Shown: positions 6,623 to 57,221, counted from the first letter of the stretch. The stretch: DNA of 64,000 nucleotides from Chloroflexota bacterium (GCA_947479915.1 CANKAU010000001.1:89977-153976); one strand, 5' to 3'. Notes: a model not told the origin generated them from the letters alone. Numbers and translations: made by a program.

Positions 6623-6655
6623 GCGACGCCACCGGTGAACGGTGCGATGTAGGGA

Positions 6656-6790: not shown

Positions 6791-6798
6791 CCTGCCGC

Positions 6799-6873: not shown

Positions 6874-6945
6874 AAACGAACGCGAACCCGTGACAGCGGG
6901 AGTTCGTCGTACCTCGGGGAAGGTACGACGAACGGCCAATCCGAT

Positions 6946-14797: not shown

Positions 14798-15067
14798 GTG
14801 GTCGTGCTAGGCGGGGAGTTAGCGGTGCCCTGAACCCGCAATCCGCTTTAGCGGGGTTGAATGCCCGTCCGAGATCGATGTCTGAAGGGACTGCAAACGC
14901 CAGGCGGTGTTGAGAGCCTGGTCCTGTGCGGCAACGCCCGGCCAACCCCGTCAGGGCCGGAAGGCAGCAGCGGTACGTCGAACGCGTTGGGTGCCACGGG
15001 ATCGCCGGGTTTGAGCAGGCCAGCGGGCGCAAGCCGGCAGCGTCGAACAATGGCGGGGCACGACCAC
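14798..15067 (+). ncRNA. ffs: signal recognition particle RNA, long (Bacillus-type, Alu domain-containing) form
   Basis: The 5' part GTGCTAGGCGGGGAGTTAGCGGTGCCCTGAACCCGCAATCCGCTTTAGCGGGG closely matches the B. subtilis scRNA Alu domain. The domain IV motif GTCAGGGCCGGAAGGCAGCAGC is at 14950-14972. The terminal helix pairs GGTCGTGC (14800-07) with GCACGACC (15058-65). Confidence 0.75.
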
Positions 15068-15165
15068 CTTCGCCACACACTCGGGCGATGGCCGGGACCA
15101 CCGGCCCGCCCGAGCAGATCACCCGTCATGCCGAGGATGTCCTCCGCCGGGAAGCTAGGGGAACC

Positions 15166-16236
15166 ATGAGCCCCAGGCGAACCAATCCTCGGCCCGCGCG
15201 GCGGCAGACCTCGCGCGCCCGGAGGCTCGGCCTGTCCTCCAAGCCCAAGGCGCCGATCGCGCGCCCGGAGGACATGCCGGACTACCTCCGCCGCCTCGGC
15301 GTGGTGCCGAGGAAGGCGCTGGGCCAGCACTGGCTCGTCGACCAGATCATTCTCGACGACATCGCGGTCGCCGCTGCGCTGACGCCGGACGACGTCGTGC
15401 TTGAGATCGGTGCAGGCCCCGGCGGGCTGACCGAGGAGCTCGCCAAGCGCGGCGCGACCGTGGTCGCCGTCGAGATCGACGAAGAACTCGCTGGCTCCAC
15501 CCGCGCCCGACTCTCGCAGTACGCGCGGCTGCACGTGCTGGCGGCGGACGTCCTCGACTTCGCGCCCGGCGAACTGCTGGCCGAGGCGGGCGTCGAGCCG
15601 CCCTACGTCGCCGTGGGCAATCTGCCGTACTACATCACCCAGCCGATCGTCCGACGCCTGCTGGAGTCCGACCCCGCCCCGACGCGCATCGTCGTCCTCG
15701 TTCAGCGCGAGGTGGCGCAGCGCATGGTCGGCGGCCCGGGACGCGAGTCGTTGCTGTCGCTGTCGGTGAAGGTGTACGGCGTCCCGCGCATGCTCTTCGA
15801 CGTGCCCGCGACGGCGTTCTGGCCGCCGCCGCGCGTGCAGTCCGCCGTAGTGGAGATCACGCGCCTCGATCGGCCTGCGGTCGACCTGACGCCCGAAGAT
15901 CTCGTTGTGTTCTTCCACCTGCTGCGCGCGGGCTTCGCCCAGCCGCGCAAGCAGATCCACAACGTCTTCGGTGAAGAGCTGGGGCTGGAGCCGATCCGGC
16001 TCCGCCGCGTGCTGGACGCGGCTGGAGTTGATCCGGCTGCCCGCGCACAGCACCTCGACCTCGCGGCGTGGGAGCGGCTGTACCACGCCTTCGTCACGCA
16101 CTACCCCGAGGCGATCGAGATGGACGAGGCCGCGATCGCCGCGGCCCTCGGCGGCGACGACGAAGACGAGGACGGCGACGGGCCCGAGGTGTGGGACGAC
16201 GACGACGCCCCGGAAGTGCACGATGACGACGAGTAG
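15166..16236 (+). CDS. rsmA: 16S rRNA (adenine1518-N6/adenine1519-N6)-dimethyltransferase RsmA/KsgA with acidic C-terminal tail
   Basis: KALGQHWL, SAM-binding EIGAGPGGLT and NLPYYIT motifs. The start is set at ATG with AGGGGA 6 nt upstream. A shorter start at MPDYLRR (15274) is possible. Confidence 0.85.
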   Translation: MSPRRTNPRPARRQTSRARRLGLSSKPKAPIARPEDMPDYLRRLGVVPRKALGQHWLVDQIILDDIAVAAALTPDDVVLEIGAGPGGLTEELAKRGATVVAVEIDEELAGSTRARLSQYARLHVLAADVLDFAPGELLAEAGVEPPYVAVGNLPYYITQPIVRRLLESDPAPTRIVVLVQREVAQRMVGGPGRESLLSLSVKVYGVPRMLFDVPATAFWPPPRVQSAVVEITRLDRPAVDLTPEDLVVFFHLLRAGFAQPRKQIHNVFGEELGLEPIRLRRVLDAAGVDPAARAQHLDLAAWERLYHAFVTHYPEAIEMDEAAIAAALGGDDEDEDGDGPEVWDDDDAPEVHDDDE

Positions 16237-17598: not shown

Positions 17599-18350
17599 TG
17601 GGCGGCAGCGTGCTGAACCCGGGGCTGTGCACCTCGATCGTGGACATGCACGTCCACACGAGTCCCACGTCCTCCGACAGCATGCTCGACCCGCACGACC
17701 TCGTCCGTGTCGCGGCTGAGAACGGCCTGACCGGCGTCAATATCAGCGACCACGACCAGATGCTGGAGCGCCACGCGATCGCCGCGTTCCGTGATCAGTA
17801 CCCGGACGCGTTCATCAACTTCGGCATGGAGGTCTCCACCGACCTCGGCCACATGATCGCGGTCGGGCTGCGCGAATATCTGCCCGGCATCCGACGCGCC
17901 GCGCAGCTGCGACTGGAGCTCGAGCGCGTGGGCGGCTTCCTGATCGTGGCGCACCCGTTCCGCCACCTGTTCGAGCCGGTGACCGCCATGCGTACCGGCA
18001 AGACCTTCGACATGACGCCGTCGGAGGCCGCCGAGACGATGCCCGTCTTCCAGGTGGTGCACGGCATCGAGGTCGCGAATGGCGCGAACACGTCGCGCGA
18101 GAACGAGTTCGCCGCCGAGGTGGCGCGGATGCGCGGGCTGGTCGCGACCGGCGGCAGCGACGCGCACTCGACCAGCGGTGTCGGCGCGTTCTCGACGGGC
18201 TTCGAGCGTGCGGTCGCCTCGGAGGCTGCGCTGCTCGAAGAACTGCACGCCGGCCGCTGCGAGGCGGTCCACCGCACGCGCGCGGGTCGCTGGGTGCGCT
18301 TCGGAGCCGGATCTACGGCCGCTGCCGCCCTCGACGCCGCGGAGGCGTAA
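17589..18350 (+). CDS. PHP domain metal-dependent phosphoesterase
   Basis: DMHVHT, ISDHD and GGSDAHS motifs of the PHP family. The start is uncertain; several GTG/ATG candidates lie between 17589 and 17646. Confidence 0.75.
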   Translation: MALVGGSVLNPGLCTSIVDMHVHTSPTSSDSMLDPHDLVRVAAENGLTGVNISDHDQMLERHAIAAFRDQYPDAFINFGMEVSTDLGHMIAVGLREYLPGIRRAAQLRLELERVGGFLIVAHPFRHLFEPVTAMRTGKTFDMTPSEAAETMPVFQVVHGIEVANGANTSRENEFAAEVARMRGLVATGGSDAHSTSGVGAFSTGFERAVASEAALLEELHAGRCEAVHRTRAGRWVRFGAGSTAAAALDAAEA

Positions 18351-18363
18351 CCTTCGCCCTACC

Positions 18364-21219
18364 GTGCGCGCGCGCACCCACGCCGGAAGGGCGGATCGCT
18401 TGCTGGATGCCTTCGTCTCGCTGGACCTCGAAACGACCGGTCTCAACATGGAGACCGATCAGATCATCGAGATCGGGGCCACGCGCTTCGACCGCTCCGG
18501 CGCGTTCGAGAACTTCTCCACGTTCGTCGACCCCGGGCGCGGCATCCCGCGCGAGGTGCGGGAGCTCACGGGCATCGCGGACGCCGACCTGAAGGGCGCC
18601 CCCCGGTTCATCGAGGTTCGCGAGGCGCTCGCGGAGTTCATCGGTGACCGTGCGATCGTCGGGCAGAACATCGCGTTCGACCTGGCGTTCCTGCGCGCGG
18701 AGCAGGTGATCCCTGTCGGCCCTTCCTTCGACACGTGGGAGCTCGCGTCGGTGCTGCTGCCCACGGCGACGCGCCTCAACCTCGCCTCGCTCGCCGCCGC
18801 GGTGGGCGTGCACATGCCCGTCGCGCATCGTGCGCTCGCCGACGCCGAGGCGACGCGCGACATCTTCCTTGCACTGCTCGACAAGCTCGAGGCGCTGCCG
18901 CGCACGCTGCTGCTGGAACTTCGCGCGTTCGCCTCGCGCGCCGACTGGGCGTTCGCCTCGCTGATCGACGACGCGCTCGCGCGCACCGGAGGACACGAGA
19001 ACCTCGACGTCGCGGGAGCGCGCTCGATCTTCTCGGCGCTGCCGCTCCCGCCGGTGCGAATCCAGTACGCGCCGCTGATCCCCCGCGATCCGATCCTGCC
19101 GACGCTGCCCGCCGAGGTCGACGGCCTGTTCACGGCCGCCGCCGCGCGCACTGACCTCCTGCCGCACTACGAGCGCCGCCCGGGGCAGGAGACGATGGCG
19201 CACGCCGTCGCACGCCTCCTCGACGAGGGCGGTACCACGGCGATCGAGGCGGGGACGGGCACCGGCAAGTCGCTGGCCTACCTGCTGCCCGCGCTGCTGC
19301 ACGCGCTGCGCAACGACGACCGTGTCGTGGTGTCCACGCACACGCTCAACCTGCAGGAACAGCTCGCGAACAAAGATCTCCCGGTCGCCTCTGCCCTGGT
19401 CGAGGAACTCGCGGGCGTGGAGCCGGGGACGTTGCGGGCGACCGTGCTCAAGGGCCGCAGCAACTACCTCTGCCTGGAGCGCTGGGCGGGCGTCCGCATG
19501 GATCCTTCGCCGCGCACCGAGCCCGAGGTGCGCCTGTTCGGACGCGTGGCGGCGTGGCTGCCGGAGACGGAGACAGGCGACCTCGCCGAGCTCTACATGA
19601 CCTCGCAGGAGCGCCCCGCCTGGGAACAGCTCAACGCCGAGGGCACCGACTGCCTCCAGCGCCGCTGTGCCTACGTCCGCGACGGATCGTGCTTCCTGCT
19701 GCGAGCGAGGACGCGTGCGGCCTCGGCGCACGTCGTCGTCGTGAACCACTCGCTGCTGCTGGCGAACGCCGCCCGCGCGGATCAGGTGCTGCCGCCGTAT
19801 CGCCACCTCGTCATCGACGAGGCGCACCGCCTGGAGGACGTCGCGACGCAGCACTACGGCGCGTCCTTCTCCGCGCGTGATGTGCGCGATCTGATCGACC
19901 GCCTCGGCCAGACCGACCGCCATGGCGAGGCCGGGTTCGTGCGCCGTCTCCAGGGCATCGGGAGCGGCGAGGCGCTCGCACTGTCACCGCTCGCCGGCCT
20001 CGCGCCGCTCGCGGACCGGCTGGAGATCGCGGTGACGGCGGCGCGCGAGCACGTGCGCCCGCTGGCGGACGCGCTCCGTGCGTTCGCCGACGAGCACGCG
20101 GAGGAGAACGGCGGGCCACGCCGCGAAATCTCGCTGACGGCCGCGCGCCGCGCGCAGCCCGCGTGGGAGGAGGCGGCCGAGGCCGCCCTCAACCTCGACA
20201 TGGCGCTGCAGGTCGTCGGTGAGCGCGTGACGCAGGTGCGGGATGCCGCCGGCGCGCTGCCCGAGGGCATCAGCGAACTCGCCGAGGCCATGCGCGTGGA
20301 GGCCGCGCAGGCCGCGGACGCGCTTGCGGCGGCCCGCGAGACGCTCCGTCGCACCGCGCTTCAGCCTCGGCGCGAGGACATCGCGTGGCTCGCGGTGGGG
20401 GAGGGGGATCAGCGGCTGCACCTCGCGCCGCTGGACGTCTCCGAGCGGCTCGACCACGACCTGTACCGCGATCGCACCTCGATCCTGCTGACGAGCGCCA
20501 CGCTCTCCGCCGCCGGCTCGTTCGACTTCACGCTGGACCGCCTCGGGCTGCGCGAGGCCGACACCCTGGAGGTGCCGTCACCGTTCGACTACCGCAAGGC
20601 GGTCCTGTCGGTGCTGGTCGACGACCTGCCTGAGCCCGGCATGCCCGGCCATGAGCGCGCGCTGCACGAGACGATCGCGGGCGCGGCACGCGCTGCCGGG
20701 GGACGCACGCTGGCGCTATTCACCTCGCACGCCGCGGTGCGCGCCGCCTCCAACGCGCTGCGCGATCTGCTGTCGCGCGACGACATCGTCGTGCTGGCGC
20801 AGGGCATCGATGGCTCACCGGGGCGGCTGCTGCGCCTGCTGGTCGAGCGCCCTCGGACGATCCTCCTGGGTACGGCGGCGTTCTGGGAGGGGATCGACGT
20901 GCAGGGCGACGCGCTGTCGCAGATCCTCGTCACGCGGCTACCGTTCCCCGTGCCGAACGACCCGATTTACGCCGGCCGCGCCGAGCAGTTCAACGACCCC
21001 TTCGGCGAGTTCGCCGTGCCGCAGTCGGTGCTGCGCTTCCGCCAGGGCTTCGGTCGGCTGATCCGTGGGACCACCGACCGCGGTGTGTTCGTGGTCCTCG
21101 ACAGTCGCATCGTGCGACGCAGTTACGGCGAGGTCTTCGTGGACTCGCTGCCCGACTGTGAGGTGCGTCGCCTCCGCGCGGACAACGTGCCGCGTGCAGT
21201 GGAGGACTGGCTGGCGTGA
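18364..21219 (+). CDS. dinG: DinG-family ATP-dependent helicase with N-terminal DnaQ-like 3'-5' exonuclease domain
   Basis: Exonuclease motifs DLETTGL, GQNIAFDLAFL and HRALADA. Helicase motifs GTGTGKSLAYLLPA (Walker A) and VIDEAH. A conserved C-terminal helicase domain is present. The start is probably GTG 18364 or TTG 18400. Confidence 0.85.
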   Translation: MRARTHAGRADRLLDAFVSLDLETTGLNMETDQIIEIGATRFDRSGAFENFSTFVDPGRGIPREVRELTGIADADLKGAPRFIEVREALAEFIGDRAIVGQNIAFDLAFLRAEQVIPVGPSFDTWELASVLLPTATRLNLASLAAAVGVHMPVAHRALADAEATRDIFLALLDKLEALPRTLLLELRAFASRADWAFASLIDDALARTGGHENLDVAGARSIFSALPLPPVRIQYAPLIPRDPILPTLPAEVDGLFTAAAARTDLLPHYERRPGQETMAHAVARLLDEGGTTAIEAGTGTGKSLAYLLPALLHALRNDDRVVVSTHTLNLQEQLANKDLPVASALVEELAGVEPGTLRATVLKGRSNYLCLERWAGVRMDPSPRTEPEVRLFGRVAAWLPETETGDLAELYMTSQERPAWEQLNAEGTDCLQRRCAYVRDGSCFLLRARTRAASAHVVVVNHSLLLANAARADQVLPPYRHLVIDEAHRLEDVATQHYGASFSARDVRDLIDRLGQTDRHGEAGFVRRLQGIGSGEALALSPLAGLAPLADRLEIAVTAAREHVRPLADALRAFADEHAEENGGPRREISLTAARRAQPAWEEAAEAALNLDMALQVVGERVTQVRDAAGALPEGISELAEAMRVEAAQAADALAAARETLRRTALQPRREDIAWLAVGEGDQRLHLAPLDVSERLDHDLYRDRTSILLTSATLSAAGSFDFTLDRLGLREADTLEVPSPFDYRKAVLSVLVDDLPEPGMPGHERALHETIAGAARAAGGRTLALFTSHAAVRAASNALRDLLSRDDIVVLAQGIDGSPGRLLRLLVERPRTILLGTAAFWEGIDVQGDALSQILVTRLPFPVPNDPIYAGRAEQFNDPFGEFAVPQSVLRFRQGFGRLIRGTTDRGVFVVLDSRIVRRSYGEVFVDSLPDCEVRRLRADNVPRAVEDWLA

Positions 21220-28445: not shown

Positions 28446-29423
28446 GTGAGGCTGTTCGGACGCGGGAAGCAGGCCGAGGAGGAACGCGACCAGGCGACCG
28501 AGCAGGCGCTTGAGCGCACGCGGCGCTCGTTCTTCGGGCGCGTGGCCGGCCTCTTCACCAGCAGCGACATCACTGACGAGACGTGGGAGTCGCTCGAAGA
28601 GGTGCTGATCGGCGCCGACGCTGGCGTGCAGACCGCAATCGAGGTGCTGGACGCTGTCCGCGCCCGCAAGCCGCGTCGCACCGAAGAGCTCCGCGCGATG
28701 CTCGCTGAAGAGCTGACCCGCATCCTCGAGTCCGCGGCCGAGCCGCGCGGCCGCCTCTGGGGGCTGCCCGAAGGCACCGAGGAGCCGTCGAAGCCCTTCG
28801 TGGTGCTCGTCGTCGGCGTGAACGGCAGCGGCAAGACGACCGCGATCGGCCGCCTCGCGTACGCCTACCAGCAGGAGGGTCGTCGTGTGATGGCCGCGGC
28901 CGGTGACACGTTCCGCGCCGCCGCGATCGAACAATTGCAGGAGTGGGGCCGGCGACTCGACTTCGATGTCGTCGCACAGGGGACGGGCGCCGACCCGGCC
29001 GCCGTCGCCTACGACGCGATTGAGGCAGCGCGGGCCCGTGGCCACGACGTGGTGCTGATCGACACGGCGGGCCGCCTGCAAAACAAGCAGAACCTCATGG
29101 ATGAGCTCTCGAAGGTGCGCCGCGTCATCGAACGACACGTCGAGCGCGGCCCCGACGAGGTGCTGCTGGTCCTCGACGCATCGACCGGCCAGAACGGGCT
29201 GTCGCAGGCTCGGGCCTTCGCCGACTCTGCGCAGGTCACCAGCGTGATGCTCACCAAGCTCGACGGCACGGCGAAGGGCGGCATCGTGTTCGCGATCGCG
29301 CGCGAGTTCGGGCTGCCGGTTCGCTTCGTGGGCACCGGCCAGCGCGAGGGCGACCTCGCGCCGTTCGACCCGCGCTCCTTCGTGCAGTCACTCCTCGGCG
29401 ACCCCGCCGCCACCGAGGCCTGA
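28446..29423 (+). CDS. ftsY: signal recognition particle receptor FtsY (short form)
   Basis: SRP GTPase motifs GVNGSGKTT, DTAGR and TKLDGTAKGG. It follows the conserved rnc-smc-ftsY order. Confidence 0.9.
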   Translation: MRLFGRGKQAEEERDQATEQALERTRRSFFGRVAGLFTSSDITDETWESLEEVLIGADAGVQTAIEVLDAVRARKPRRTEELRAMLAEELTRILESAAEPRGRLWGLPEGTEEPSKPFVVLVVGVNGSGKTTAIGRLAYAYQQEGRRVMAAAGDTFRAAAIEQLQEWGRRLDFDVVAQGTGADPAAVAYDAIEAARARGHDVVLIDTAGRLQNKQNLMDELSKVRRVIERHVERGPDEVLLVLDASTGQNGLSQARAFADSAQVTSVMLTKLDGTAKGGIVFAIAREFGLPVRFVGTGQREGDLAPFDPRSFVQSLLGDPAATEA

Positions 29424-29436
29424 GTCCGGCGGCGCG

Positions 29437-31737
29437 ATGACCGACGCCGCGATCCACCTCCTCGCCTGGTACGCGATCCTCGCGCTGGTCGGCCTGTGCG
29501 CGCTGCTGCCAGCGGCGGTGCTGTGCGACCGACTCGCGACGCGCGGCGTGCTGCTCGCCCGGCCGCTCGGCCTCGCCGTCATCGCGGTGGCGTGCTGGGT
29601 GGTCGCATGGTTCGGCTGGCTACCGTACGGCACGCCACTTGCCGCGGGCGCGCTGGTGGCGCTGGGCGCGTGGAGCGTTGTCATTGCGCGACGCCGGCCC
29701 GAGGTCCTCGCCGCAGTCCGCGCCGGCCGCTCCACGATCCTCGCCGGCGAGGTGCTGTGCGCGGTCGTGTTTGCGCTCGTGCTGATCGCGCGCGTGCAGG
29801 CGCCCGACGCGGTCGGCACCGAGAAGCCCATGGATCTGATGATGATCACCGCGGTGCACGAGGCGCGACGGATGCCGCCGCCCGATCCGTGGCTCTCTGG
29901 TCATACGCTCTCCTACTACTACCTCGGGCATCTCGGGGCGGACGTCCTCGGACGGCTCTCCGGCAATGCTCCCGATGTCGCATTCAACCTCGCGACGGCA
30001 ACGGCGGGCGCACTCGCCGCGGTCGCGATGGCGGGACTCGCCATCGATGTGCTCGCGCTCGGCCGCAGCGGGGCGCGTGTGGCGCCTCGGGCGAAGCTCG
30101 TCGCGTCGGGCGTGGCGATCGGCACGCTGCTGCTTGTGACGCCGCTGGTCGGGCTCGTGAACCTCGCGGCGGCGAACGGGATCGGGGATCCTGCGTGGTG
30201 GGCGGCGCTCGGTGTGCAGGACGTGCCGGTGGCCCCGGGCGCGCTGAGCGGCGTGCCGACCACATTCTGGTGGTGGTGGACAAACACCCGCGTGCTGCCC
30301 GAGACGATCAACGAGTTCCCCGCGTTCACGCTGATCCTCGGCGACCCGCACGCGCACCTGCTCGCGTTGCCGATCGACCTCGTCGCAGTCGCTCTCGCAG
30401 TCGGGACGTTCGAGGGCGGCACACCGCTGACGTGGCGTCGCTGGACGCGCGACCCCGAGCGCCTCGCGCTCACCGGCGTGGTCTTCGCCGCGATCGTCAT
30501 GACGAACGCGTGGGACATCTTCATCTACGGCGCCCTGTGGGGCGCCGCCGGGACGATCGCGTTCCTGCGTACCGGCTGGTCGGCGCTCCCGGCGGTGATG
30601 GGCGTCGTACGGTGGGCGATGGCCCCGGTCGGCGTCGCCGCGGTGCTGGCGCTCGGCTTCCTCGAGTCCCTCGACGCGCCGCGACTCGGGCTGGCGCCGG
30701 TGATCGGCGAGCACTCCGATCCGCTGCGCTGGCTGCTCGTCTGGCTGCCGCCGCTGCTGCCGGTCCTCGCCGCGCTTGCGCTGCTCCGTCCACGCATCGA
30801 ACGGGGTGCCGCGGTGCGCGTGCTCTCGCTGGTTCTCGCGCCGATCGCCGGGTGGATCGGGCTGGTGCTGAACGCGACAGGCCCCGCCGAGTTCATGGCG
30901 CGCGGCACCGGGTGGGCGGTCATGCTTGGGCTCGTCGCGGCGATCACGCTGGTTGCGAGCGCCGCGATCACGGCGGACGGGCGGCTCGACCGGGCGCTCG
31001 CGACGGCGCTCGCGCTGCTGGGTGCGGCGCTGGTCGTGTTGCTGGCGACGGAGTTGTTCCGCGTCGCGGACGCCTTCCCCGGGCGGTTCAACACCGTGTT
31101 CAAGTTCTGGTTCAACACCTGGGCGCTGGTCGCGCTGGCCGCGGGAGCACTCGCCGGCCTCGCCGCGGAGCGCGCGAGGCTCCCCGTGCACGCGCTTGGA
31201 CAGGAGGCGGTGCGCCTCGGCGTGCCGGTCGCGGGGGCGGTGGCGCTGCTGACCGCGCTGTACCTGCCGGCGATGGCGGTCAGCCGGGCGCGCGAGGGTC
31301 AGTCGCCCAGCATGAGCGGTGTGGCACATCTGCAACGCAGCGATCCCGGACTCTATGCGACGATCGCCTGGGCGCGCGGGCGTCTCGACCCGACGCATGA
31401 TGTGGTGGCACAGGCCGTCTCGGAAAGTTACACCACGGGCAATATGCTGGCGGTCGCGACGGGCGTGCCGACGCTGCTGGGCTGGCCGAACCACGAGCGC
31501 CAGTGGCGGCGCGCGATCCCTGAGGCGGAGCGGCGCGAGGCGGTGCAGGCGATCTACGCTGGTGGCCCCGGGGCCGCCTCGACGGCGCGGCGCTTCGGCG
31601 TGACGTACGTGTACGTCGGACGCGAGGAGCGGGCGGCGTTCGGTCGCGAGGTGGCCGACCGCTTTGTGGGCTGGCCGGTGGTAGTGAATGAGCAGGGGGC
31701 GCTGCTGCTGCAGGTGCCCGCCGTGGAGGCCCGATGA
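29437..31737 (+). CDS. DUF2298 / Chlor_Arch_YYY (TIGR03662-like) polytopic membrane protein
   Basis: 766 aa and highly hydrophobic. It carries the diagnostic motif SGHTLSYYYLGH. Confidence 0.8.
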   Translation: MTDAAIHLLAWYAILALVGLCALLPAAVLCDRLATRGVLLARPLGLAVIAVACWVVAWFGWLPYGTPLAAGALVALGAWSVVIARRRPEVLAAVRAGRSTILAGEVLCAVVFALVLIARVQAPDAVGTEKPMDLMMITAVHEARRMPPPDPWLSGHTLSYYYLGHLGADVLGRLSGNAPDVAFNLATATAGALAAVAMAGLAIDVLALGRSGARVAPRAKLVASGVAIGTLLLVTPLVGLVNLAAANGIGDPAWWAALGVQDVPVAPGALSGVPTTFWWWWTNTRVLPETINEFPAFTLILGDPHAHLLALPIDLVAVALAVGTFEGGTPLTWRRWTRDPERLALTGVVFAAIVMTNAWDIFIYGALWGAAGTIAFLRTGWSALPAVMGVVRWAMAPVGVAAVLALGFLESLDAPRLGLAPVIGEHSDPLRWLLVWLPPLLPVLAALALLRPRIERGAAVRVLSLVLAPIAGWIGLVLNATGPAEFMARGTGWAVMLGLVAAITLVASAAITADGRLDRALATALALLGAALVVLLATELFRVADAFPGRFNTVFKFWFNTWALVALAAGALAGLAAERARLPVHALGQEAVRLGVPVAGAVALLTALYLPAMAVSRAREGQSPSMSGVAHLQRSDPGLYATIAWARGRLDPTHDVVAQAVSESYTTGNMLAVATGVPTLLGWPNHERQWRRAIPEAERREAVQAIYAGGPGAASTARRFGVTYVYVGREERAAFGREVADRFVGWPVVVNEQGALLLQVPAVEAR

Positions 31738-33698
31738 GCGAAGCGATCGCCGACGCACCGCCCGACGAGGATCAGCGGTTCACGCTCATCGACCGCCTGC
31801 GCGCGATCGACGCTGTCGAATGGGGCGTGATCGCGTTGTTCGCGATCTCGCTGGTGCTGCACCTGTGGAACGTGGGGCCGCGCGCGTATCACCACGACGA
31901 GTCGCAGCACGCCGCCTTCTCGTACTACTTCTTCTCGGGCGCAGGGTACCGGCACGATCCGCTACTGCACGGACCGCTGCAGTTCCACGTGCTCGCGCTG
32001 ATCTTCAAGATCTTCGGTGATACCGACTTCACCGCGCGCGTCTTCCACGGGCTGATGGGCTCGCTGCTGGTGCTGACGCCACTGTGGTTCCGCCGCACGC
32101 TGAGCGGGCCGGGCGTCGTGCTGGCCGCGCTCTTCTTCGTGATCTCGCCGTCGATCCTCTACTACTCGAGGTTCGCGCGAAACGACGTCCCGGTGATCCT
32201 GTTCACGACGATGATGATCGCCGGGACGTGGCGCTATCGGACCGATCAGCGCCTCCGCTGGCTGCTGCTGGTCGCCGCGGGCCTCGCGTTGTCATTCGCC
32301 TCGAAGGAGACGACCTACATCGCGGCCGTGGTCCTGCTGCTGTACCTCAACGGTGCGCTGGCCCACAGCCTGTTCCAGCAGCAGCGTCGAGGCACCCGGG
32401 CCACGCTCCTCGACCGCGTCGCCGACGGCGTGTGGCTGTTCCCCACCGCGTGGCTGTTCGCGGCGCTGTGGCGTCCGCTGGCGCCGCTCCGCGCCCGACT
32501 CCGCCTCGAGGAACGACCGCCCGAGGCTGACGTGCTGGTGGTGGTGGGCACGCTCGTCCTCGGCGAGCTGTCCGCGCTGTCGCGGCTGCCACTCCATGTC
32601 GTGGGCGTCGAGGCAAGCGGCCCCCAGCACACGATGATCGCGACGGCCGTGGTGCTCGTCCTGCTCGCGGCCGCCGCGGGTGTCGGAGCGCTGTGGCGCT
32701 GGGACTGGTGGGTCGCCTGCGCCGCGGTGTTCTTCGCGATCACGGTGCCGCTGTACATGTCGATGGGCACGAACCTGCCCGGCGTCGGCGGGCTGTTCTG
32801 GAACTCACTGAGCTACTGGCTCGATCAGCAGGAGGTCCGCCGCGGCACGCAGCCGTGGTTCTACTACCTGATGATGGTGCCGCTCTACGAAATGCTGATC
32901 CTCATCCCTGGTGCGATCGGCGGCGCATGGCTGGCGATCCGCCGAGGCGACCACTTCGCCGCGATGCTGCTGTGGTGGATGGCGGGCACGCTGCTCGCAC
33001 TGTCCGTGGCCGGCGAGAAGATGCCGTGGCTCACCGTGCATATCGCACTGCCGCTGGTGCTACTCGCCGCGTACGTCCTCGGCCGCGTCTGGCCACGTGT
33101 CGCGAGCCGGATGCGCGAGGGCAGCGGGTCGCTGATGGCGTGGGCGGCGGGCGGCCTCGTGCTGGCGGTGCTCGCGCTGGCGCTGCTCATCACCGTGCGG
33201 ACGGACATCGGCCTGAACATCGGGCATCCGGACACGCCCGTGGAGCCGCTGATCTACGTGCAGACGACGCCGGAACTCCCGCGCCGCGCCACCGAGATCC
33301 AGCGCTGGATCGCCGAGGGCCGTGCGAGCTCGGTGGTGCTGGACGACTCGGACGGCACGGGCATCACCTGGCCGTGGGCGTGGTACCTGCGGCACGAGGG
33401 CATCACGTACCTCGGGGCAGACCAGGTCCAGCAGGGCGTCGACCCGCGGGCGATCGTGATCCGGGCGCGCGGGGATCGCCCGGCACCGAGGTCGCTCATC
33501 GATCGTTCGAGTGACGTGGTCGTCTATCGTCACCGGTGGTGGTTCCCCGAGGAGGGGTACCGCGGCGTGACGTGGACCGACCTGCGCGAAGGCGTCCTGG
33601 ACGGCTCGATGCTGCGGACGTGGGCGGCGTTCGCGTGGAACCGCGGCGACCCGGCGGCAATCGCGTCGCTGGACGGGGAGATCTACTTCCCGCGCTGA
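31734..33698 (+). CDS. TIGR03663-like membrane protein with PMT/ArnT-like (GT-C) N-terminal region
   Basis: 654 aa with the DE dipeptide (HHDESQHA) and HGP tripeptide (LLHGPLQFH) near the N-terminus, and multiple TM segments. ATGA overlap with the upstream gene. Confidence 0.75.
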   Translation: MSEAIADAPPDEDQRFTLIDRLRAIDAVEWGVIALFAISLVLHLWNVGPRAYHHDESQHAAFSYYFFSGAGYRHDPLLHGPLQFHVLALIFKIFGDTDFTARVFHGLMGSLLVLTPLWFRRTLSGPGVVLAALFFVISPSILYYSRFARNDVPVILFTTMMIAGTWRYRTDQRLRWLLLVAAGLALSFASKETTYIAAVVLLLYLNGALAHSLFQQQRRGTRATLLDRVADGVWLFPTAWLFAALWRPLAPLRARLRLEERPPEADVLVVVGTLVLGELSALSRLPLHVVGVEASGPQHTMIATAVVLVLLAAAAGVGALWRWDWWVACAAVFFAITVPLYMSMGTNLPGVGGLFWNSLSYWLDQQEVRRGTQPWFYYLMMVPLYEMLILIPGAIGGAWLAIRRGDHFAAMLLWWMAGTLLALSVAGEKMPWLTVHIALPLVLLAAYVLGRVWPRVASRMREGSGSLMAWAAGGLVLAVLALALLITVRTDIGLNIGHPDTPVEPLIYVQTTPELPRRATEIQRWIAEGRASSVVLDDSDGTGITWPWAWYLRHEGITYLGADQVQQGVDPRAIVIRARGDRPAPRSLIDRSSDVVVYRHRWWFPEEGYRGVTWTDLREGVLDGSMLRTWAAFAWNRGDPAAIASLDGEIYFPR

Positions 33699-33795
33699 AC
33701 GGCGCGCTGGGGACCACGGCGGCAGCCGTGACGCAGCACACGAGGATCGCAGACACTGGACGGGCCGTCCGGAAGCAGCGCGGCAGGGAGTCCCG

Positions 33796-34806
33796 ATGCG
33801 CCAACTCCGGATCTGGCTGGGCAGCGCGATCAGCCTGGCGTTTCTCGTACTCCTGCTCTGGCGCGTGGATCGCGTGGAGCTGTGGGCGGCGCTGCGTCAG
33901 GTGAATGCGTGGTGGCTGCTGCCGGCGCTGGGCGCCTTCGCCCTCTCGATCGCGGTGCGGGTGGTGCGCTGGCGGATCATCCTCGACCGCGTGCAGCCGG
34001 TTCCGACGAGCGATGCGGCGGAGCTGCTGCTGATCGGCGCGGCGGCGAACAACATCCTCCCCGCGCGCACCGGCGAGATCGTGCGCGCCGTGCTGCTGCA
34101 ACGACGACACGGTGGCTCGATGGTCACAGCGCTCGGCACCATCGTCGTCGAGCGGATCTTCGACGGACTGATCCTCGCGCTGATGCTCGCAGCGACGCTC
34201 GCGGTCCTCGGCAGCAACACCGTGCTGCGCAACGTCGCGCTCGTCGCGGGCGCGGCGTTCACCGCGATCGCGCTCGTTCTCGTCGCCCTCGCCCTGCTGC
34301 CGGTGCTGACGCGGCGGCTCATCGATGCGGTGCTCACGGTCCCACCGGCCGCGATCGGCGGCCCGCTGCGCGCGCTGGCGAACCGCTTCCTCGACGGACT
34401 GACCTCGCTGGGCGGACCGGGCACGTGGGCGCTCGTCGCCACCGCGTCGGCGGCGACGTGGATGCTCGAAGGTGCCTCGTACTGGCTGGTCGGCATCGGC
34501 TTTGGGCTGCCGCTCTCCCCGATCGTCTACCTCGCGGTCTGCGGCGCAGCGAACCTCACGGTGGCCGTCCCCAGCACCTCTGGCGCGATCGGGCCGTACG
34601 AGTTCCTCGCCCGCGAGGTCGTGGTGTACTTCGGTGCGAGCGCGGCAGCGGGCACGGCCTACGCGATCGGCGTGCACGCGTTCGTGCTGCTGCCGGTGAC
34701 GCTGGTCGGGCTGCTGCTGCTCTGGCGGCGCGACCTCGGCCTCGGCGACCTCGCGCGTGCCGAGGGCATCGAGGCGGGGAGCGATCGAGCGGAGGTGCCG
34801 CGGTGA
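33796..34806 (+). CDS. flippase-like domain (MprF C-terminal/UPF0104-like) membrane protein
   Basis: 336 aa and polytopic, containing LIGAAANNILPARTGEIVRAVLL, the pattern of flippase-like/lysylphosphatidylglycerol synthase TM-region proteins. Confidence 0.65.
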   Translation: MRQLRIWLGSAISLAFLVLLLWRVDRVELWAALRQVNAWWLLPALGAFALSIAVRVVRWRIILDRVQPVPTSDAAELLLIGAAANNILPARTGEIVRAVLLQRRHGGSMVTALGTIVVERIFDGLILALMLAATLAVLGSNTVLRNVALVAGAAFTAIALVLVALALLPVLTRRLIDAVLTVPPAAIGGPLRALANRFLDGLTSLGGPGTWALVATASAATWMLEGASYWLVGIGFGLPLSPIVYLAVCGAANLTVAVPSTSGAIGPYEFLAREVVVYFGASAAAGTAYAIGVHAFVLLPVTLVGLLLLWRRDLGLGDLARAEGIEAGSDRAEVPR

Positions 34807-36191
34807 AGGTGATCGTGATCGGTGCGGGCGTCGCCGGGCTCGCCGCCGCTTACGACCTGGCCAAGCGCGGCCACGAGGTCGCGGTGTACGAAGCGAGCGA
34901 CCGTCCCGGCGGGCAGGTGCGCACGTTCCTCGTCGGCGGTGGCCGCGTGGAGATCTTCTACCACCACCTGTTCCGCTCCGACACGGACATCGTCGCGCTG
35001 ATCGATGAACTGGGGCTGGGCGACGACCTCCAGTGGATCGACTCGAACGTGGGGCTGCACGCCGGGGGGAGGAACTACCCCTTCGTCGGCCCGATCGACC
35101 TGCTGCGCTTCGACCGCGTCTCGCTGCTCACGCGCGTGCGCCTCGGCCTGGGCGCGCTGTACCTGCGCCGCTACACGCAGTGGCACAACTTCGAGGGCAA
35201 GCGCGCTGCCGAGTGGATCCGCCGCTGGGTCGGGCGCGAGGGCTACGACGCCGTATGGGGGCCGCTGCTGCGCGCCAAGTTCCGCAGCCACGCGGAGGAC
35301 GTGAGCCTGGTCTGGTTCTGGGGCAAGCTGCACCTCCGCTTCGCCTCGCGGCAGGCGAAGGGCGGCCTCGCGGGGCTCTTTGCGAAGGAGCAGCTCGGCT
35401 ACCTGCGCGGATCCTTCGGTCGGCTGATCGACGCGCTCGTCGCAGCGACGGCGGTGCGCGGCGGCACGCTGCACCTCGGCGCGCCCGTGGAGCGCGTGCT
35501 GATCGAGACCACGCCGTCCGGGGAGAGCCGCGCCACCGGCGTCCGCCTCGCCGACGGCACCGAGGCGCGCGCGGACGCCGTCCTCGCGACCGTGCCGTCC
35601 GAGTGGTTCGCGCGGATGGTGCCGGACCTCGCGGAGCGGGATGCGCGCTACGCGGAGATGCTGCGGTCGGTGCAGTACCAGTGGGCCACCGTCCTCGCGA
35701 TCACGCTCGATCGCCCGCTGTCGCCCATCTACTGGCTGACCATGACCGACCCGGACTGCCCGTTCGTGGTCGCCGTGGAGCAGACGAACTTCATGCCGCC
35801 CTCGGACTACGGCGGGGAGCACCTGCTGTACCTGTCGAACTACGTCGATCCCGGCGACCCGACCACCGAGCAGACGGCGGACGAAGTCTTCGATCGGCAC
35901 GAGCCGTACCTGAAGCGCATCAACCCCGCGTTCGATCGGTCGTGGGTGCACGAGAAATGGCTGTTCACGGACCGCGCGGGGCAGCCGGTGGTGAATGCCC
36001 GCTACCACGAGACCATCCCGCCGCACCGGACGCCGGTGCCCGGCCTGTACCTCGCGAACACGACGCAGATCTACCCGGAGGACCGGGGCCAGAACTACTC
36101 GATCCGCATGGGCGTCCGCGTCGCGCGCCTCCTCGAGCAGGACATGACGTCGAGGCTGCCGGTTCCGGAGCCGGAGGCGCCTTCGGCGTAG
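34803..36191 (+). CDS. FAD-dependent oxidoreductase (amine oxidase/phytoene desaturase-like family)
   Basis: N-terminal dinucleotide fold VIVIGAGVAGLAAAYDLAKRGHEVAVYEASDRPGG. GTGA start/stop overlap with the flippase-like gene. Confidence 0.8.
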   Translation: MKVIVIGAGVAGLAAAYDLAKRGHEVAVYEASDRPGGQVRTFLVGGGRVEIFYHHLFRSDTDIVALIDELGLGDDLQWIDSNVGLHAGGRNYPFVGPIDLLRFDRVSLLTRVRLGLGALYLRRYTQWHNFEGKRAAEWIRRWVGREGYDAVWGPLLRAKFRSHAEDVSLVWFWGKLHLRFASRQAKGGLAGLFAKEQLGYLRGSFGRLIDALVAATAVRGGTLHLGAPVERVLIETTPSGESRATGVRLADGTEARADAVLATVPSEWFARMVPDLAERDARYAEMLRSVQYQWATVLAITLDRPLSPIYWLTMTDPDCPFVVAVEQTNFMPPSDYGGEHLLYLSNYVDPGDPTTEQTADEVFDRHEPYLKRINPAFDRSWVHEKWLFTDRAGQPVVNARYHETIPPHRTPVPGLYLANTTQIYPEDRGQNYSIRMGVRVARLLEQDMTSRLPVPEPEAPSA

Positions 36192-36215: not shown

Positions 36216-36244
36216 TTGAGCGCCCTGTGGGGCGCCCGTATAGT
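36216..36244 (+). promoter_or_regulatory. putative sigma70-like promoter (TTGAGC-17-TATAGT) upstream of nuoE-like gene
   Basis: A near-consensus -35/-10 pair with a 17-nt spacer, 70 nt upstream of the nuoE-like ATG. Confidence 0.4.
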
Positions 36245-36314
36245 GACCTGGTCGGACTGTGAATTCGCGCACGAGCCGCGCAGAACGGCCACTGGCCGTG
36301 GTGAGAGGCGCCCG

Positions 36315-36833
36315 ATGCCGCTGGAAACCGAGTCCCGCGCGCAGATCCGCGCGCTGATCGCCGAATTCCGCCCGAACCACGGCGATCTCCTCGCCACGCT
36401 CCACCGGATCCAGCACGAGTACGGCTACCTCTCCCGCGAGGCCCTCGAGGTCGTCGCGGAGCAGTTGCACCTGTTCGCCGCGCAGGTCTACGGCGCGGCC
36501 TCGTATTACGAGGAGTTCCGCTTCGAGCCGCCCGCCGCGGTCGACATCCGCTGGTGTTCCGGCCCCGCGTGCCGCGCCCGCAACGGCGGCGGCATCCGCG
36601 ACGCGCTCCTCGCGACGCTCGCCGTGCAGATGAACGGGCAGACCGAGGACGGGCGCGTCGGCGTGCGCCTCGGGCAGTGCATCGGCACCTGCGAGCTCGC
36701 GCCGCAGGTCTGGATCGAGGAGCGCGCGTCCCACACCAACGAGGTCGTCGGCAACCTGAACGCCGCGAAGGCCGTGCGCCTCGCGCGCGCGCTGCGTGAT
36801 GGGGCAACGGCCCAGGAGGTGCTCCGTGGCTAG
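36315..36833 (+). CDS. nuoE: NuoE-like thioredoxin-fold [2Fe-2S] ferredoxin (NADH dehydrogenase 24 kDa subunit family)
   Basis: Four Cys in CSGPAC...CIGTC. GAGAGG RBS 5 nt upstream. Confidence 0.8.
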   Translation: MPLETESRAQIRALIAEFRPNHGDLLATLHRIQHEYGYLSREALEVVAEQLHLFAAQVYGAASYYEEFRFEPPAAVDIRWCSGPACRARNGGGIRDALLATLAVQMNGQTEDGRVGVRLGQCIGTCELAPQVWIEERASHTNEVVGNLNAAKAVRLARALRDGATAQEVLRG

Positions 36834-38730
36834 CCCCCTCGAGCGATACGCCGAGCTGAAGACCGCCGCGGACGCCACCTACGCCGGCTGGCGGACCCCG
36901 CAGCGCCCGCGCATCGACGTCGCCATCGACACCTCATCGCTCGCCAACGGCGCGCGCGCCACGCGGGACGCGATCGAGGCGAACATCTCCGAGCGCAACG
37001 CCGTCGTGGATCTCGGCCGCGTGCACGGCTACGGGATGCAGTGGCTGCACCCGCTCGTCACGATCACCTTCCCGGACGGCGCGTCCGTGGTGTACGGCCC
37101 CGTGCGCGCCGAGCACGCCGCGCTGATCGTCGATATCGCCACCGGCGCGAAGCCGGCCACCTCGACGCTCGCGATCGGCACCATCGCCGGGGAGCGCGCG
37201 GGGATCCCGAGCCTGCGCGAGCACCCGTTCTTCGCGCTGGAGCCGAAGACCGGTCGCCGCCTGATCCATCGCCTCGGCTTCACCGACCCTGAGAACCTGG
37301 ACCACTACATCGCGACGGGTGGCTACCACGCAGCGGCGCGCATGTTGGATCGTCACCAGTCGCCTGCACAGGTGCGCCAGGAGTTGATCGACTCCGCCCT
37401 CGGCGGGCGCGGCGGCGGCAACTTCCCAGCGGGCACGAAGTGGAACTTCCTCGCGACCGCGCCGGGCGAGGAGCACTACGTCATCTGCAACGCCGATGAG
37501 GGCGACCCGGGCGCGTGGGTGAACCGCGTGATCATGGAGGGCGACCCCCACCTGCTGATCGAGGGCCTGATCATCGCCGCCTACGCGACGGGCTCGAAGG
37601 GCGGGTTCATCTACATCCGCGACGAGTACCCGCTGGCGATCGCGCGCATGGAGCAGGCCGTCCGCCAGGCGCAGGAGGCGGGCCTCCTCGGCGAAGGCGT
37701 CTTCGGCACCGAGATGAACTTCGAACTGCGCGTGATCCGCGGCGCGGGCGCGTACGTCTGCGGCGAGGAGACCGGGCTCATCTCCTCGATCCAGGACAGC
37801 CGTGGCATGCCGCGCGTGAAGCCGCCGTTCCCGGCGGGCGCGGGCGTCTTCATGAAGCCGTCCAACGTGAACAACGTGGAGACCTACGCCAACGCGCCCA
37901 TGGTGATCGAGCACGGCGCGCAGTGGTACCTCGAGTACGGTACGGAGCGCATGCGCGGCACGCGCCTGTTCTCGTTCTCCGGCGACATCCAGCGCGTCGG
38001 GTTCATGGAGATCCCGTTCGGCGTGCCGCTGGGCGGGGTGATCGAGGCCTGCGGCGGGATGCTGCCCGGGCTCCAGCTGAAGGCGATTCAGTCGGGCGGC
38101 CCGCTGGGCTCGATGCTCCCGGCGCGCGAGGTGCCCAACCTGTCGATGGAGAACGCGCCGTTCTCCGCGCTCGACGCGCTGATGGGCGGCGGCGGCATCG
38201 TCTTCCTGTCGGATCGCATCTGCACGATCCACATGGCGGAGATGTTCACGCAGTTCGTCGAGGAGGAGTCCTGCGGCCGCTGCACGACCTGCCACGGCGG
38301 CAACCAGCGCCAGACGGAGATCATCCGCCGCACGATTGCCGGCGAAGGCCGCCACGAGGACCGCCACAACCTCGCGCTGATCGATCGCACGCTGCAGTTC
38401 TCGAACTGCGTGCACGGCCAGTTCAGCCCGAAGATCGTGCGCAACACGCTGCGCTTCTTCTCTGACGAGTACGAGCGCCACAGCGCCGGCCGCACCTGCG
38501 ACGCGCTGGAGTGCGAAGGCCTGATCCGCTTCCGGATCACCAACCAGGGCGATCCACGGCTCGCCGAGGCGCAGGACATCTGTCCGGTCGCCGCGATCAC
38601 CGGCACGCCCGGCCGCCGGACGCTGGACGAGGCCGCCTGCATCCGGTGCGGCGCCTGCACGGACGTCGCCCCGAACGCGATCGTGCGCGAGGCGAAGCCC
38701 GCGACGCCGCGCCTCGTCGCCCTCAGCTAG
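36796..38730 (+). CDS. nuoF: NuoF-like NAD(H)-binding FMN/[4Fe-4S] subunit with N-terminal Trx-like extension and C-terminal ferredoxin-like Cys clusters
   Basis: GGRGGGNFPAGTKW (FMN), the NADH-binding glycine-rich segment and ESCGRCTTCHGG (4Fe-4S). A C-terminal extra domain carries CxxC and CxxCxxC motifs. The start is either 36796 or GTG near 36827. Confidence 0.8.
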   Translation: MMGQRPRRCSVASPLERYAELKTAADATYAGWRTPQRPRIDVAIDTSSLANGARATRDAIEANISERNAVVDLGRVHGYGMQWLHPLVTITFPDGASVVYGPVRAEHAALIVDIATGAKPATSTLAIGTIAGERAGIPSLREHPFFALEPKTGRRLIHRLGFTDPENLDHYIATGGYHAAARMLDRHQSPAQVRQELIDSALGGRGGGNFPAGTKWNFLATAPGEEHYVICNADEGDPGAWVNRVIMEGDPHLLIEGLIIAAYATGSKGGFIYIRDEYPLAIARMEQAVRQAQEAGLLGEGVFGTEMNFELRVIRGAGAYVCGEETGLISSIQDSRGMPRVKPPFPAGAGVFMKPSNVNNVETYANAPMVIEHGAQWYLEYGTERMRGTRLFSFSGDIQRVGFMEIPFGVPLGGVIEACGGMLPGLQLKAIQSGGPLGSMLPAREVPNLSMENAPFSALDALMGGGGIVFLSDRICTIHMAEMFTQFVEEESCGRCTTCHGGNQRQTEIIRRTIAGEGRHEDRHNLALIDRTLQFSNCVHGQFSPKIVRNTLRFFSDEYERHSAGRTCDALECEGLIRFRITNQGDPRLAEAQDICPVAAITGTPGRRTLDEAACIRCGACTDVAPNAIVREAKPATPRLVALS

Positions 38731-38800: not shown

Positions 38801-39382
38801 CTAGAAGTCGGAGATGTCCCGGCGCACGGGATACACGTAGCCGACGAACGGGTGCCACAGACGCTGGCGCACCTCGTCCCACGGCAGGAACGCGTGGCCG
38901 ACCCGGCCCCACGCTGACGTGCGGAAGCGCGTTGACCAGGAGCACATCTGCTGGCTCCAGTTCATCTCGCTGACGTGGATGCCCTCGGCGGTCACATCCT
39001 CGATGTACGCGACGTGGCCCGCGCCGCCACTCCACACCACGACCGCACCGACGCGCGCGGCATAGAGGTCGCGGCCGACGACCCAGCCGGCGGCCTCCGC
39101 GTTGTCGTACCAGTACGCCGCGTTGTCGCGCCAGTTCACGCCTGGGTCTGGTGCCACCGTGTCAAAGCGTCGGGCGGCGTGCGTGGTGCACTGCCCCCCG
39201 CTGCCGGGACGGGTGCTCGCGAAGCCCTTGTGCGGGTCGAGGTCGCGGCCCTCCATCGAGCACTCATCAGCGGCCTCGGTCTCGCCCCGGAGGACGAGCG
39301 CGAGCGGCGCGGCCGCGGCCACGAGGGCCAGCGAGCCGAGGAAGCGACGGCGGGGCAGGGGATCGGTCCGGCGATCGGTCAT
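38801..39382 (-). CDS. secreted CHAP domain protein (putative peptidoglycan amidase/peptidase)
   Basis: Tat-like signal RRRFLGSLALVAAAAP. CHAP-like Cys...His (GQCTTHAAR ... GHVAYIEDV). The start is set at MTDRRTD. Confidence 0.6.
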   Translation of the reverse strand: MTDRRTDPLPRRRFLGSLALVAAAAPLALVLRGETEAADECSMEGRDLDPHKGFASTRPGSGGQCTTHAARRFDTVAPDPGVNWRDNAAYWYDNAEAAGWVVGRDLYAARVGAVVVWSGGAGHVAYIEDVTAEGIHVSEMNWSQQMCSWSTRFRTSAWGRVGHAFLPWDEVRQRLWHPFVGYVYPVRRDISDF

Positions 39383-39555
39383 GCGTCCTCCACGCGCCGC
39401 AGGGTATCGCACCATCAGGCGAGGCGTCTCCCCTCGTCGTGCCCGGGACCTGAGAGGTCCCGGCGCGGCTTCCTGCCTTGAGCGGGGTCCCGGGGGGCGC
39501 GTAGACTCAGGCATCGGCGATCCATCCCGCGTCTCCCCGCGGAAGTCGGCAGCAC

Positions 39556-56547: not shown

Positions 56548-56582
56548 ACCCGTGGCGCCCGCGTTGCCGCCCTGCGAGTCAA

Positions 56583-57221
56583 CTAGGCGCGAGGCCGCCG
56601 CGCGGCGAGCAGGCCCGCCAGCCCGACGACCAGCCCGGCGGCGCCGACGCCGAGCCCGGCCATCGCCATCGTGCGGGCCGACTTCGCCGCGTCCACGGCC
56701 GCCCGCGCCTCATCGGCAGCACCGCGCACGGCGCCCTCGAGCTCGCGTGGCTGCGCCGGCTCCACAGGGAACAGGAGTTCCTTGACCGGCTCCACATTGT
56801 TGAAGGTCCCCGGGCCGGACTCGAAGGTCGCGTCGATCGTCGCGCCGTTGATGGTCCCGGTGAACCGGAAGCGGTACTGGCCGGACAGCGTGGGGATCAC
56901 GTCCGAGGTGTAGCTGCCCGGCGTGTTGAAGACGGCCCGGATCGGGTACGACTTCGACGCCTTGCTCTGGATGTGGGTGATCTCCCACTTCAGCGTCTTC
57001 TCGACGCCTTCCACGGGCTTCCCATCCTTCGAGACCCGCAGCGATAGCCCGTTCTTCTCACCCTCCAGCGCAGGCTCAGCGGCGAATCCGACGACGAAGT
57101 CGTAGCCGGCGACGGTACGACGCTCGTGTGCGAGCGCACGCGACGGGATGACGATCGACAGTGCCACGAGGGCGAGCACGGCGGCAGCCGCGAAGCGGCG
57201 CGCGCTGACAATAAGAGACAT
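56583..57221 (-). CDS. YcnI-like (DUF1775) secreted copper-binding protein with C-terminal membrane anchor
   Basis: Signal peptide MSLIVSARRFAAAAVLALVALSIV, with the mature N-terminus starting with His, and a C-terminal TM helix. It is 35 nt upstream of the CopCD gene. Confidence 0.55.
   Translation of the reverse strand: MSLIVSARRFAAAAVLALVALSIVIPSRALAHERRTVAGYDFVVGFAAEPALEGEKNGLSLRVSKDGKPVEGVEKTLKWEITHIQSKASKSYPIRAVFNTPGSYTSDVIPTLSGQYRFRFTGTINGATIDATFESGPGTFNNVEPVKELLFPVEPAQPRELEGAVRGAADEARAAVDAAKSARTMAMAGLGVGAAGLVVGLAGLLAARRPRA

Follow-up and report, generated by a model that had tools for sequence, protein, structure and literature searches.

What might a membrane protein of unassigned role, a relative of archaeal Agl23, a flippase-like protein and a flavoprotein do together when their genes stand in a row directly behind ftsY? 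The question is raised by a 64,000-nt stretch of DNA (hereafter the window; ~71% G+C) from an uncultured Dehalococcoidia (Chloroflexota) bacterium, in which four genes, referred to here as g1 to g4, follow the gene of the signal recognition particle (SRP) receptor. Our preferred answer, held with modest confidence, is that this cluster is predicted to transfer sugars extracytoplasmically, at the outer side of the cytoplasmic membrane and from a polyprenyl-phosphate-linked donor. The four genes are as follows.

29437-31737, + strand: g1, DUF2298/Chlor_Arch_YYY integral membrane protein (766 aa; TIGR03662)
31734-33698, + strand: g2, TIGR03663 (Agl23 family) protein (654 aa; ATG start overlapping the g1 stop)
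33796-34806, + strand: g3, flippase-like membrane protein (UPF0104; homologue of the MprF transmembrane/flippase domain; 336 aa)
34803-36191, + strand: g4, soluble FAD-dependent oxidoreductase of the amine-oxidase/CrtI/HpnE/PPOX superfamily (462 aa; GTG start)

All four open reading frames (ORFs) were recovered on the + strand where the initial annotation of this DNA had placed them. The two 4-nt start/stop overlaps that it had pointed out can be read directly from the sequence: ATGA at 31734-31737 joins g1 to g2, with a GGAGG upstream, and GTGA at 34803-34806 joins g3 to g4, with a GGAGG 8 nt before the g4 GTG. Genes g2 and g3 are 97 nt apart. The third-position G+C of the four genes (0.86-0.90) is high, as in other window genes. 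A protein identical to g2 is recorded on a 96-kb metagenome contig in ENA, and its named relatives are "Dehalococcoidia bacterium" metagenome-assembled genomes (MAGs).

In the mechanism that we propose, a GT2 enzyme encoded elsewhere would make a lipid-linked sugar at the cytoplasmic face of the membrane, where g4 may tailor the lipid carrier or its sugar. The g3 protein would then translocate the lipid-linked sugar, and g2 together with g1, probably as a complex, would transfer the sugar to an envelope acceptor, which might be a surface protein, a glycolipid or a polysaccharide.

Predicted folds of the g1 and g2 membrane proteins

The g2 protein matches TIGR03663 with 263.3 bits (cut-off 126.25), its residues 31-556 aligning with profile positions 3-431 of 435, and weaker PMT_2 and PMT matches cover residues 58-206. 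Structure prediction of the 654-aa protein, which the initial annotation had put forward as a check, gave a model with a complete GT-C fold of the ArnT/PMT type. The same fold is found in enzymes that work outside the membrane and have lipid-phosphate-linked sugars as substrates. The DE and HGP signatures noticed previously were located at D55/E56, within an HHDES sequence (residues 53-57), and at residues 79-81; among 27 homologues, D55, E56, H79, G80, P81, R50, R102 and R120 are invariant. The acidic pair lies ~10 residues past the first transmembrane helix (TM1), at the start of the first loop helix. In PMT, ArnT and oligosaccharyltransferases (OSTs), catalytic acidic residues are found at the first outer loop, to which the g2 pair is predicted to belong. 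Two arginines (RR, 120-121) identify the loop that follows in g2 as cytoplasmic, and the GT-C fold and the positive-inside rule would together place the DE/HGP loop that follows TM1, as well as a conserved C-terminal alpha/beta domain (~510-654, ~145 aa), on the extracytoplasmic side, which agrees with the topology expected of the DE motif at the outset. The C-terminal NHL beta-propellers of several g2 relatives fit an outward-facing C-terminus. Many g2 relatives are 980-1115 aa long with a C-terminal NHL-repeat beta-propeller (L029 9983-13111; L064 9914-13261; L073 9899-12832).

Both TIGR03662 and TIGR03663 had been described as families of no known function. This holds for DUF2298, for which our literature search found no functional study, and no longer for TIGR03663, which has a studied archaeal member and is now listed in NCBIfam as "flippase activity-associated protein Agl23". 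The published description of Agl23 from Haloarcula hispanica is that of a putative Glc/Gal-P-dolichol flippase; in purified form it translocates Man5GlcNAc2-PP-dolichol (M5GN2-PP-Dol) in liposomes, and it rescues yeast rft1-delta (PMC11182771). It is thus conceivable, though in our view unlikely, that g2 is itself a translocator, or part of one, for a polyprenyl-phosphate sugar or a lipid-linked oligosaccharide, with g1 as the sole transferase and g3 flipping some other lipid. The TIGR03663 score of g2 is consistent with such a role, as is the ~32% identity of its N-terminal core (first ~200 residues) to a haloarchaeal member encoded on plasmid pHBOR02 of Halogeometricum borinquense (L084 12031-14402; 319 bits), with which it has the DE, HGP, YYSRF.R.D and KE(S/T) motifs in common. 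Yet TIGR03663 is a "subfamily" model rather than an equivalog, and membership does not amount to proof of orthology to H. hispanica Agl23. The complete GT-C fold predicted for g2, with an invariant acidic pair at what would be the catalytic position of ArnT, PMT and OSTs, argues for a transferase. Furthermore, the Halogeometricum gene overlaps by 4 nt a GtrA-family gene (PF04138, 75 bits), just as a PF03706 gene follows g2 in the window, so that a flippase-type follower drawn from two unrelated families occurs in two domains of life; next to such a dedicated gene a second flippase would be redundant. Upstream of the Halogeometricum TIGR03663 gene come two genes for GH18 chitinase-like proteins and two for proteins with PKD domains.

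The g1 protein scores 370.4 bits against TIGR03662 (curated cut-off 300.25; profile positions 3-703 of 727) and 277 bits against PF10060 (DUF2298; cut-off 27.8). Its SYYYLGH motif, already singled out in the initial annotation, occupies residues 159-165 (nt 29911-29931); in an alignment of 29 homologues Y160, Y161 and G164 are invariant, the third motif position being Y or H. Further conserved loop motifs are TEKPMD (128-133), PPPDPW (147-152), GDPHAH (302-307), NAWD (357-360) and GWPNHERQW (682-690), and they contain the invariant residues E129, D150, D303, H305, H307 and D360. The first five of these would fall in two large outer loops according to the topology deduced for g1, with E129 and D150 in the first one. 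Structure prediction suggests a GT-C fold with a C-terminal globular domain resembling that of AglB/STT3, and Foldseek searches with the g1 model ranked AfAglB and human STT3B first (E about 1e-4). Membership of g1 in the STT3 family by sequence was considered and ruled out, as PF02516 gave no Pfam match at E<=5 and the C-terminal domain carries no WWDYG/WWD motif, its invariant motif being GWPxHExQW. Searches of g1 against PDB sequences returned insignificant matches only (E 0.5-0.75).

A search with the DUF2298 profile retrieves 9,467 representatives at 50% identity, and for 4,726 the match is at E<=1e-30. This sizeable family gains a concrete assignment that can be checked, namely a predicted GT-C fold with an OST-like C-terminal domain. 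In a second DUF2298 architecture class, the proteins measure 1,700-2,700 aa, are extended by 700-850 aa at the N-terminus and match the profile in 2-4 stretches.

Proteins with a GT-C fold might also serve some other lipid-dependent envelope reaction, or act as a scaffold in the manner of PIG-U/GAB1 in the glycosylphosphatidylinositol (GPI) transamidase. We hold this to be very improbable for g1 and g2. All the stronger matches are active glycosyltransferases, and the outer loops of the two proteins contain acidic and histidine residues that do not vary among homologues. A DUF2298 gene is moreover found in a sugar-polymer context in a Firmicute: on plasmid pNP95 of Pseudobutyrivibrio xylanivorans (L085 9626-11881) it lies inside a surface-polysaccharide cluster together with two GT2 genes and genes for a glucosyltransferase-domain protein, an O-antigen ligase family protein, a DegT aminotransferase and a CapD-like epimerase/dehydratase.

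The flippase-like protein and the flavoprotein

Profile PF03706 (LPG_synthase_TM) is matched by g3 from end to end (159.2 bits, positions 1-302 of 302), and g3 also matches TIGR00374 at 57.7 bits (cut-off 43.2). These matches point to g3 as a member of the MprF lipid-flippase-domain family, with a predicted role in translocation; no solved relative was detected among PDB sequences.

The family of g4 is NF005560 (PRK07233; 448.4 bits, cut-off 252), whose only name is "hypothetical protein", and the protein also matches Amino_oxidase over its full length (133 bits), with the FAD-binding GxGxxG motif present as GAGVAG at residues 7-12. Its nearest functionally named families are HpnE, CrtI/CrtD and PPOX, all far under their cut-offs: a full-length alignment to HpnE scores 86 bits (cut-off 283), PPOX 54.6 bits (cut-off 97.85) and the CrtI family 44.5 bits (cut-off 238). 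A role as UDP-galactopyranose mutase was rejected because g4 has no GLF family match. MprF-type flippase domains partner a cytoplasmic enzyme that makes their lipid cargo, and by analogy with such pairs g4 may tailor the cargo of g3; DprE1 is an example of an FAD enzyme whose substrates are lipid-linked sugars. The family assignments of the initial annotation were thus recovered above cut-off for TIGR03662, TIGR03663, PF03706 and the FAD oxidoreductase. The suggestion of PF09594 (GT87/DUF2029) had to be dropped, as none of the four proteins matched it and g1 and g2 gave no match even at E<=5.

Gene order, fusions and occurrence in other lineages

When one genome for each GTDB species was scanned with a sequence pattern, at least 594 g2 relatives were returned, and the best 80 loci, almost all from Chloroflexota, were analysed by searching them with the window proteins by tblastn. 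The order ftsY-g1-g2-g3-g4 is found on the same strand in 33 of 57 assessable Chloroflexota loci, and the four-gene order is kept down to ~25-30% identity for g1 and g2. Gene ftsY lies directly 5' of g1 in 42 of 62 assessable loci, at a distance of 30 nt or less in 19 of the 35 loci measured, while g1 and g2 overlap or are at most 30 nt apart in 36 of 62. Further downstream, g3 is found 3' of g2 in 45 of 69 assessable loci (g3 identity 27-50%), usually 5-150 nt away, and g4 downstream in 37 of 63; the 4-nt overlap of g3 and g4 recurs in 27 of 43 loci, with a 1-nt overlap in 5 more. The operon-like organisation, which had been read from the window alone, and a conserved co-occurrence of the genes are borne out by these counts. 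No partner gene was detected in 14 of 57 assessable loci, which represent extra g2 paralogues in unrelated contexts; such solo paralogues (L025, L064, L073) adjoin genes for an ABC transporter, a hydrolase and dehydrogenases.

The flanks of the cluster in the window comprise the following features.

28446-29423, + strand: ftsY (SRP receptor), upstream neighbour (SRP54, 247.8 bits, and SRP54_N)
36216-36244, + strand: promoter-like site TTGAGC-17-TATAGT, between g4 and the NuoE-like gene
36216-36833, + strand: NuoE-like (2Fe-2S thioredoxin-like) gene, downstream flank
36796-38730, + strand: NuoF-like gene (644 aa), downstream flank

The cluster is thus placed between ftsY and a NuoEF-like module, as originally described, in the order rnc, smc, ftsY on its 5' side and NuoE-like gene, NuoF-like gene, opposite-strand CHAP-domain ORF, mutS and mutL on its 3' side. 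The ftsY stop is 13 nt from the g1 start, and ftsY and g1-g4 are probably co-transcribed. The promoter-like site, a match to the consensus only, is the sole one across 11.7 kb (shuffles predict 0.4) and may mark the 3' boundary of the operon. A scan with Rfam found no RNA element inside the g1-g4 cluster. The nuoEF genes are a separate unit with variable spacing, the distance from g4 to nuoE elsewhere ranging from 33 to 4480 nt. The NuoE/NuoF-like pair follows the cluster in many Dehalococcoidia at a varying distance; it is kept in L011, where g4 is absent, and so appears independent of g4.

How much of this order reflects shared function is the point on which a second alternative turns. Genes g1-g4 could form two independent modules that are adjacent by inherited order, a glycosylation pair g1-g2 and a lipid module g3-g4 with no shared pathway, in which g4 desaturates, saturates or oxidises an isoprenoid or other lipid and the flippase-like g3 exports the product. 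Genes smc, ftsY, nuoEF and mutS are as syntenic as g1-g4, and as the entire smc-ftsY-...-nuoEF-mutS block is conserved, gene order within Dehalococcoidia alone is weak evidence of shared function. The Chloroflexia loci L018 and L033, which have ftsY-g1-g2 without g3-g4, are what two separable modules would produce, and it is g3 and g4 that are tightly coupled, g2 and g3 being spaced apart. The nearest functionally defined relatives of g4 (HpnE, CrtI/CrtD, PPOX) act on isoprenoids or tetrapyrroles, which also suits an isolated lipid module. We nevertheless find this account improbable, given that g3 keeps its place after g2 across deep divergence and that the archaeal TIGR03663/GtrA pairing is an independent recurrence of a downstream flippase-type gene. 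In addition, one Dehalococcoidia MAG (L017 13117-13788) has a DedA-family gene inserted exactly between the g2 and g3 orthologues. This gene scores 60.8 bits against the undecaprenyl-phosphate transporter UptA, below the cut-off of 250, and we count it in favour of a possible link between the cluster and polyprenyl phosphate.

The overlaps, this DedA gene, the archaeal and Firmicute contexts and a set of gene fusions are stronger evidence of coupling than gene order is. In three Anaerolineae/Caldilineaceae loci (L078 25-4359; L065 344-5380; L075 1098-5633), single proteins of 1444-1678 aa unite a PMT_2-like GT-C domain with a complete Chlor_Arch_YYY domain. Their N-terminal PMT_2/PMT-like domain has a weak TIGR03663 match (19-34 bits), and the Chlor_Arch_YYY domain scores 461-530 bits. 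Further DUF2298 and TIGR03663-like genes, as well as genes for large PMT_2-PA14-NHL proteins, are found 3' of the fusions. The link between DUF2298 and an Agl23-type GT-C protein is consequently a genetic one and, in some lineages, a physical one as well.

Two intergenic gaps in Tepidiformales-type loci looked like additional components and were discarded as such. The ~1-kb gap between g2 and g3, considered as a GT2 gene, is actually the C-terminal NHL beta-propeller extension of g2, and the ~1.7-kb gap between g1 and g2 holds a divergent TIGR03663 paralogue that scores below threshold (65-78 bits). In at least one such locus, L029, the interposed paralogue has its DE motif replaced, with GGAELAHLSGAW where g2 has HHDESQHAAFSYY.

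A number of observations weigh against the proposed glycosyl transfer pathway. No gene examined in the window has a GT2 Pfam match, and a GtrB-like query had no tblastn match (E<=1e-3) in the window, nor any within 10 kb in the 84 related loci searched, although the limited sensitivity of a single query applies. The sole studied relative of g2, Agl23, was described as a flippase and not as a transferase (PMC11182771). The structures of g1 and g2 are predictions, the TM-scores of g1 to solved GT-C structures are low (0.3-0.4), and hhalign detected no relationship between the g1 and g2 profiles (probability 1.5%). Gene g4 is absent from L011, L016 and L055, and to this must be added the g3-g4-less Chloroflexia loci and the share of gene order that may be due to inheritance, both discussed above. 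A candidate GT2::Agl23 fusion, P0018 (L081 907-2661; 584 aa), has GT2 Pfam matches in its first ~130 residues, while the remainder is 69% identical to g2 from g2 residue ~225 onwards; as the GT2-like part spans only ~130 residues and the source is a single 4.7-kb metagenome contig, it was treated as a probable chimera or misassembly.

With these points taken into account, we still lean towards glycosyl transfer, and within this general scheme we rather favour regarding g1-g4 as a conserved operon of Dehalococcoidia. The operon lies beside ftsY in the conserved core of the genomes of a group whose cell surface has been little studied, a position that makes it a good candidate for a basic envelope function. 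A farther-reaching version, which we offer as speculation and judge to be distinctly unlikely, is that DUF2298/YYY proteins are an unrecognised, highly diverged OST-like branch of GT-C proteins that, with an Agl23-type GT-C partner, an MprF-type flippase and a carrier- or sugar-tailoring flavoenzyme, form a housekeeping surface-protein/envelope glycosylation pathway common to Chloroflexota and Archaea. If so, Agl23-family proteins would be transferases instead of, or besides, flippases.

Other features of the window were noted in passing. A large-type bacterial SRP RNA (14802-15063, + strand; Rfam RF01854, 144.7 bits, full model) lies ~13 kb 5' of ftsY and overlaps the 5' end of an ORF at 14914-16236, whose KsgA/RrnaAD match begins only at residue 133; the true ksgA start is thus probably further downstream. 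Three tRNA genes are located at 6546-7030, namely Val-GAC (- strand), Lys-CTT (+) and Leu-TAG (+). The CHAP-domain ORF (47 bits; 38801-39514, - strand) separates the NuoF-like gene from mutS; peptidoglycan amidases and peptidases typically contain this domain, and the ORF hints at murein in this organism. In a 1067-aa protein (18016-21219, + strand), an RNase_T-type 3'-5' exonuclease domain is joined to a helicase of the DinG type (DEAD, Helicase_C_2), and an 808-aa protein (54283-56709, - strand) consists of CopC and CopD fused to a cytochrome c domain at the C-terminus.

Comparison with known systems

Each of the four proteins is an ordinary member of an existing family that an annotation pipeline could name. 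Our literature search returned nothing relevant on PF03706 proteins with a glycosyltransferase, on GT-C proteins of Chloroflexi in connection with an S-layer, or on an OST of Dehalococcoidia.

Agl23 of H. hispanica belongs to the same TIGR03663 family as g2, and both are tied to the handling of polyprenol- or dolichol-phosphate sugars, by prediction in the case of g2. Unlike Agl23, g2 is bacterial, its identity to the haloarchaeal member being limited to ~32% over ~200 residues, and has its own ~145-aa C-terminal domain. The partners of g2 are a DUF2298 protein, a PF03706 protein and a flavoprotein, whereas those of the archaeal proteins are Agl22 (GT2) or GtrA; and the published role of Agl23 is that of a flippase, while the predicted fold and the motifs of g2 point to a transferase. 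From the ArnT/PMT/ALG-type GT-C enzymes (CAZy GT83, GT39), g2 differs in that its profile finds no match among PDB sequences, in having no MIR domain and in its C-terminal domain. The predicted fold of g1 resembles AglB/STT3/PglB, but g1 departs from them in the topology of its N-terminal part as well as in the missing STT3 match and WWDYG motif and in the low TM-scores given above.

A parallel in organisation is offered by the three-component Gtr-type systems (GtrA/GtrB/Gtr; CsbB/GtcA/YfhO), in which, as proposed here, a flippase is combined with a GT-C transferase that uses a polyprenyl-phosphate monosaccharide on the outside of the membrane; the archaeal TIGR03663 gene is actually paired with a GtrA-family gene. 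In the cluster described here, a PF03706 (MprF-type) protein takes the place of GtrA, two GT-C-fold proteins unrelated to each other are predicted instead of one, a flavoprotein is translationally coupled to the flippase-like gene, and the GT2 synthase is missing from g1-g4. Like the MprF flippase domain and UPF0104 (YbhN), g3 matches PF03706 throughout and TIGR00374, but it is a stand-alone protein of 336 aa without an aminoacyl-phosphatidylglycerol synthase domain. With HpnE, CrtI and PPOX, g4 has in common the FAD Rossmann motif, the full-length Amino_oxidase match and the alignment to the HpnE model; it differs in scoring far under their functional cut-offs and in its coupling to a flippase-like gene, which is not a feature of these enzymes.

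Relative to the literature that we found, four aspects are new: the arrangement of the four genes as an operon conserved in the core of Dehalococcoidia genomes; the GT-C fold and OST-like C-terminal domain predicted for DUF2298; the natural PMT_2::DUF2298 fusions; and the contrast between the flippase label of Agl23 and its family's predicted complete transferase fold with an invariant pair of catalytic-type acidic residues. This last tension is sharpened by the fact that, in two lineages, the TIGR03663 gene is followed by a dedicated flippase-type gene.

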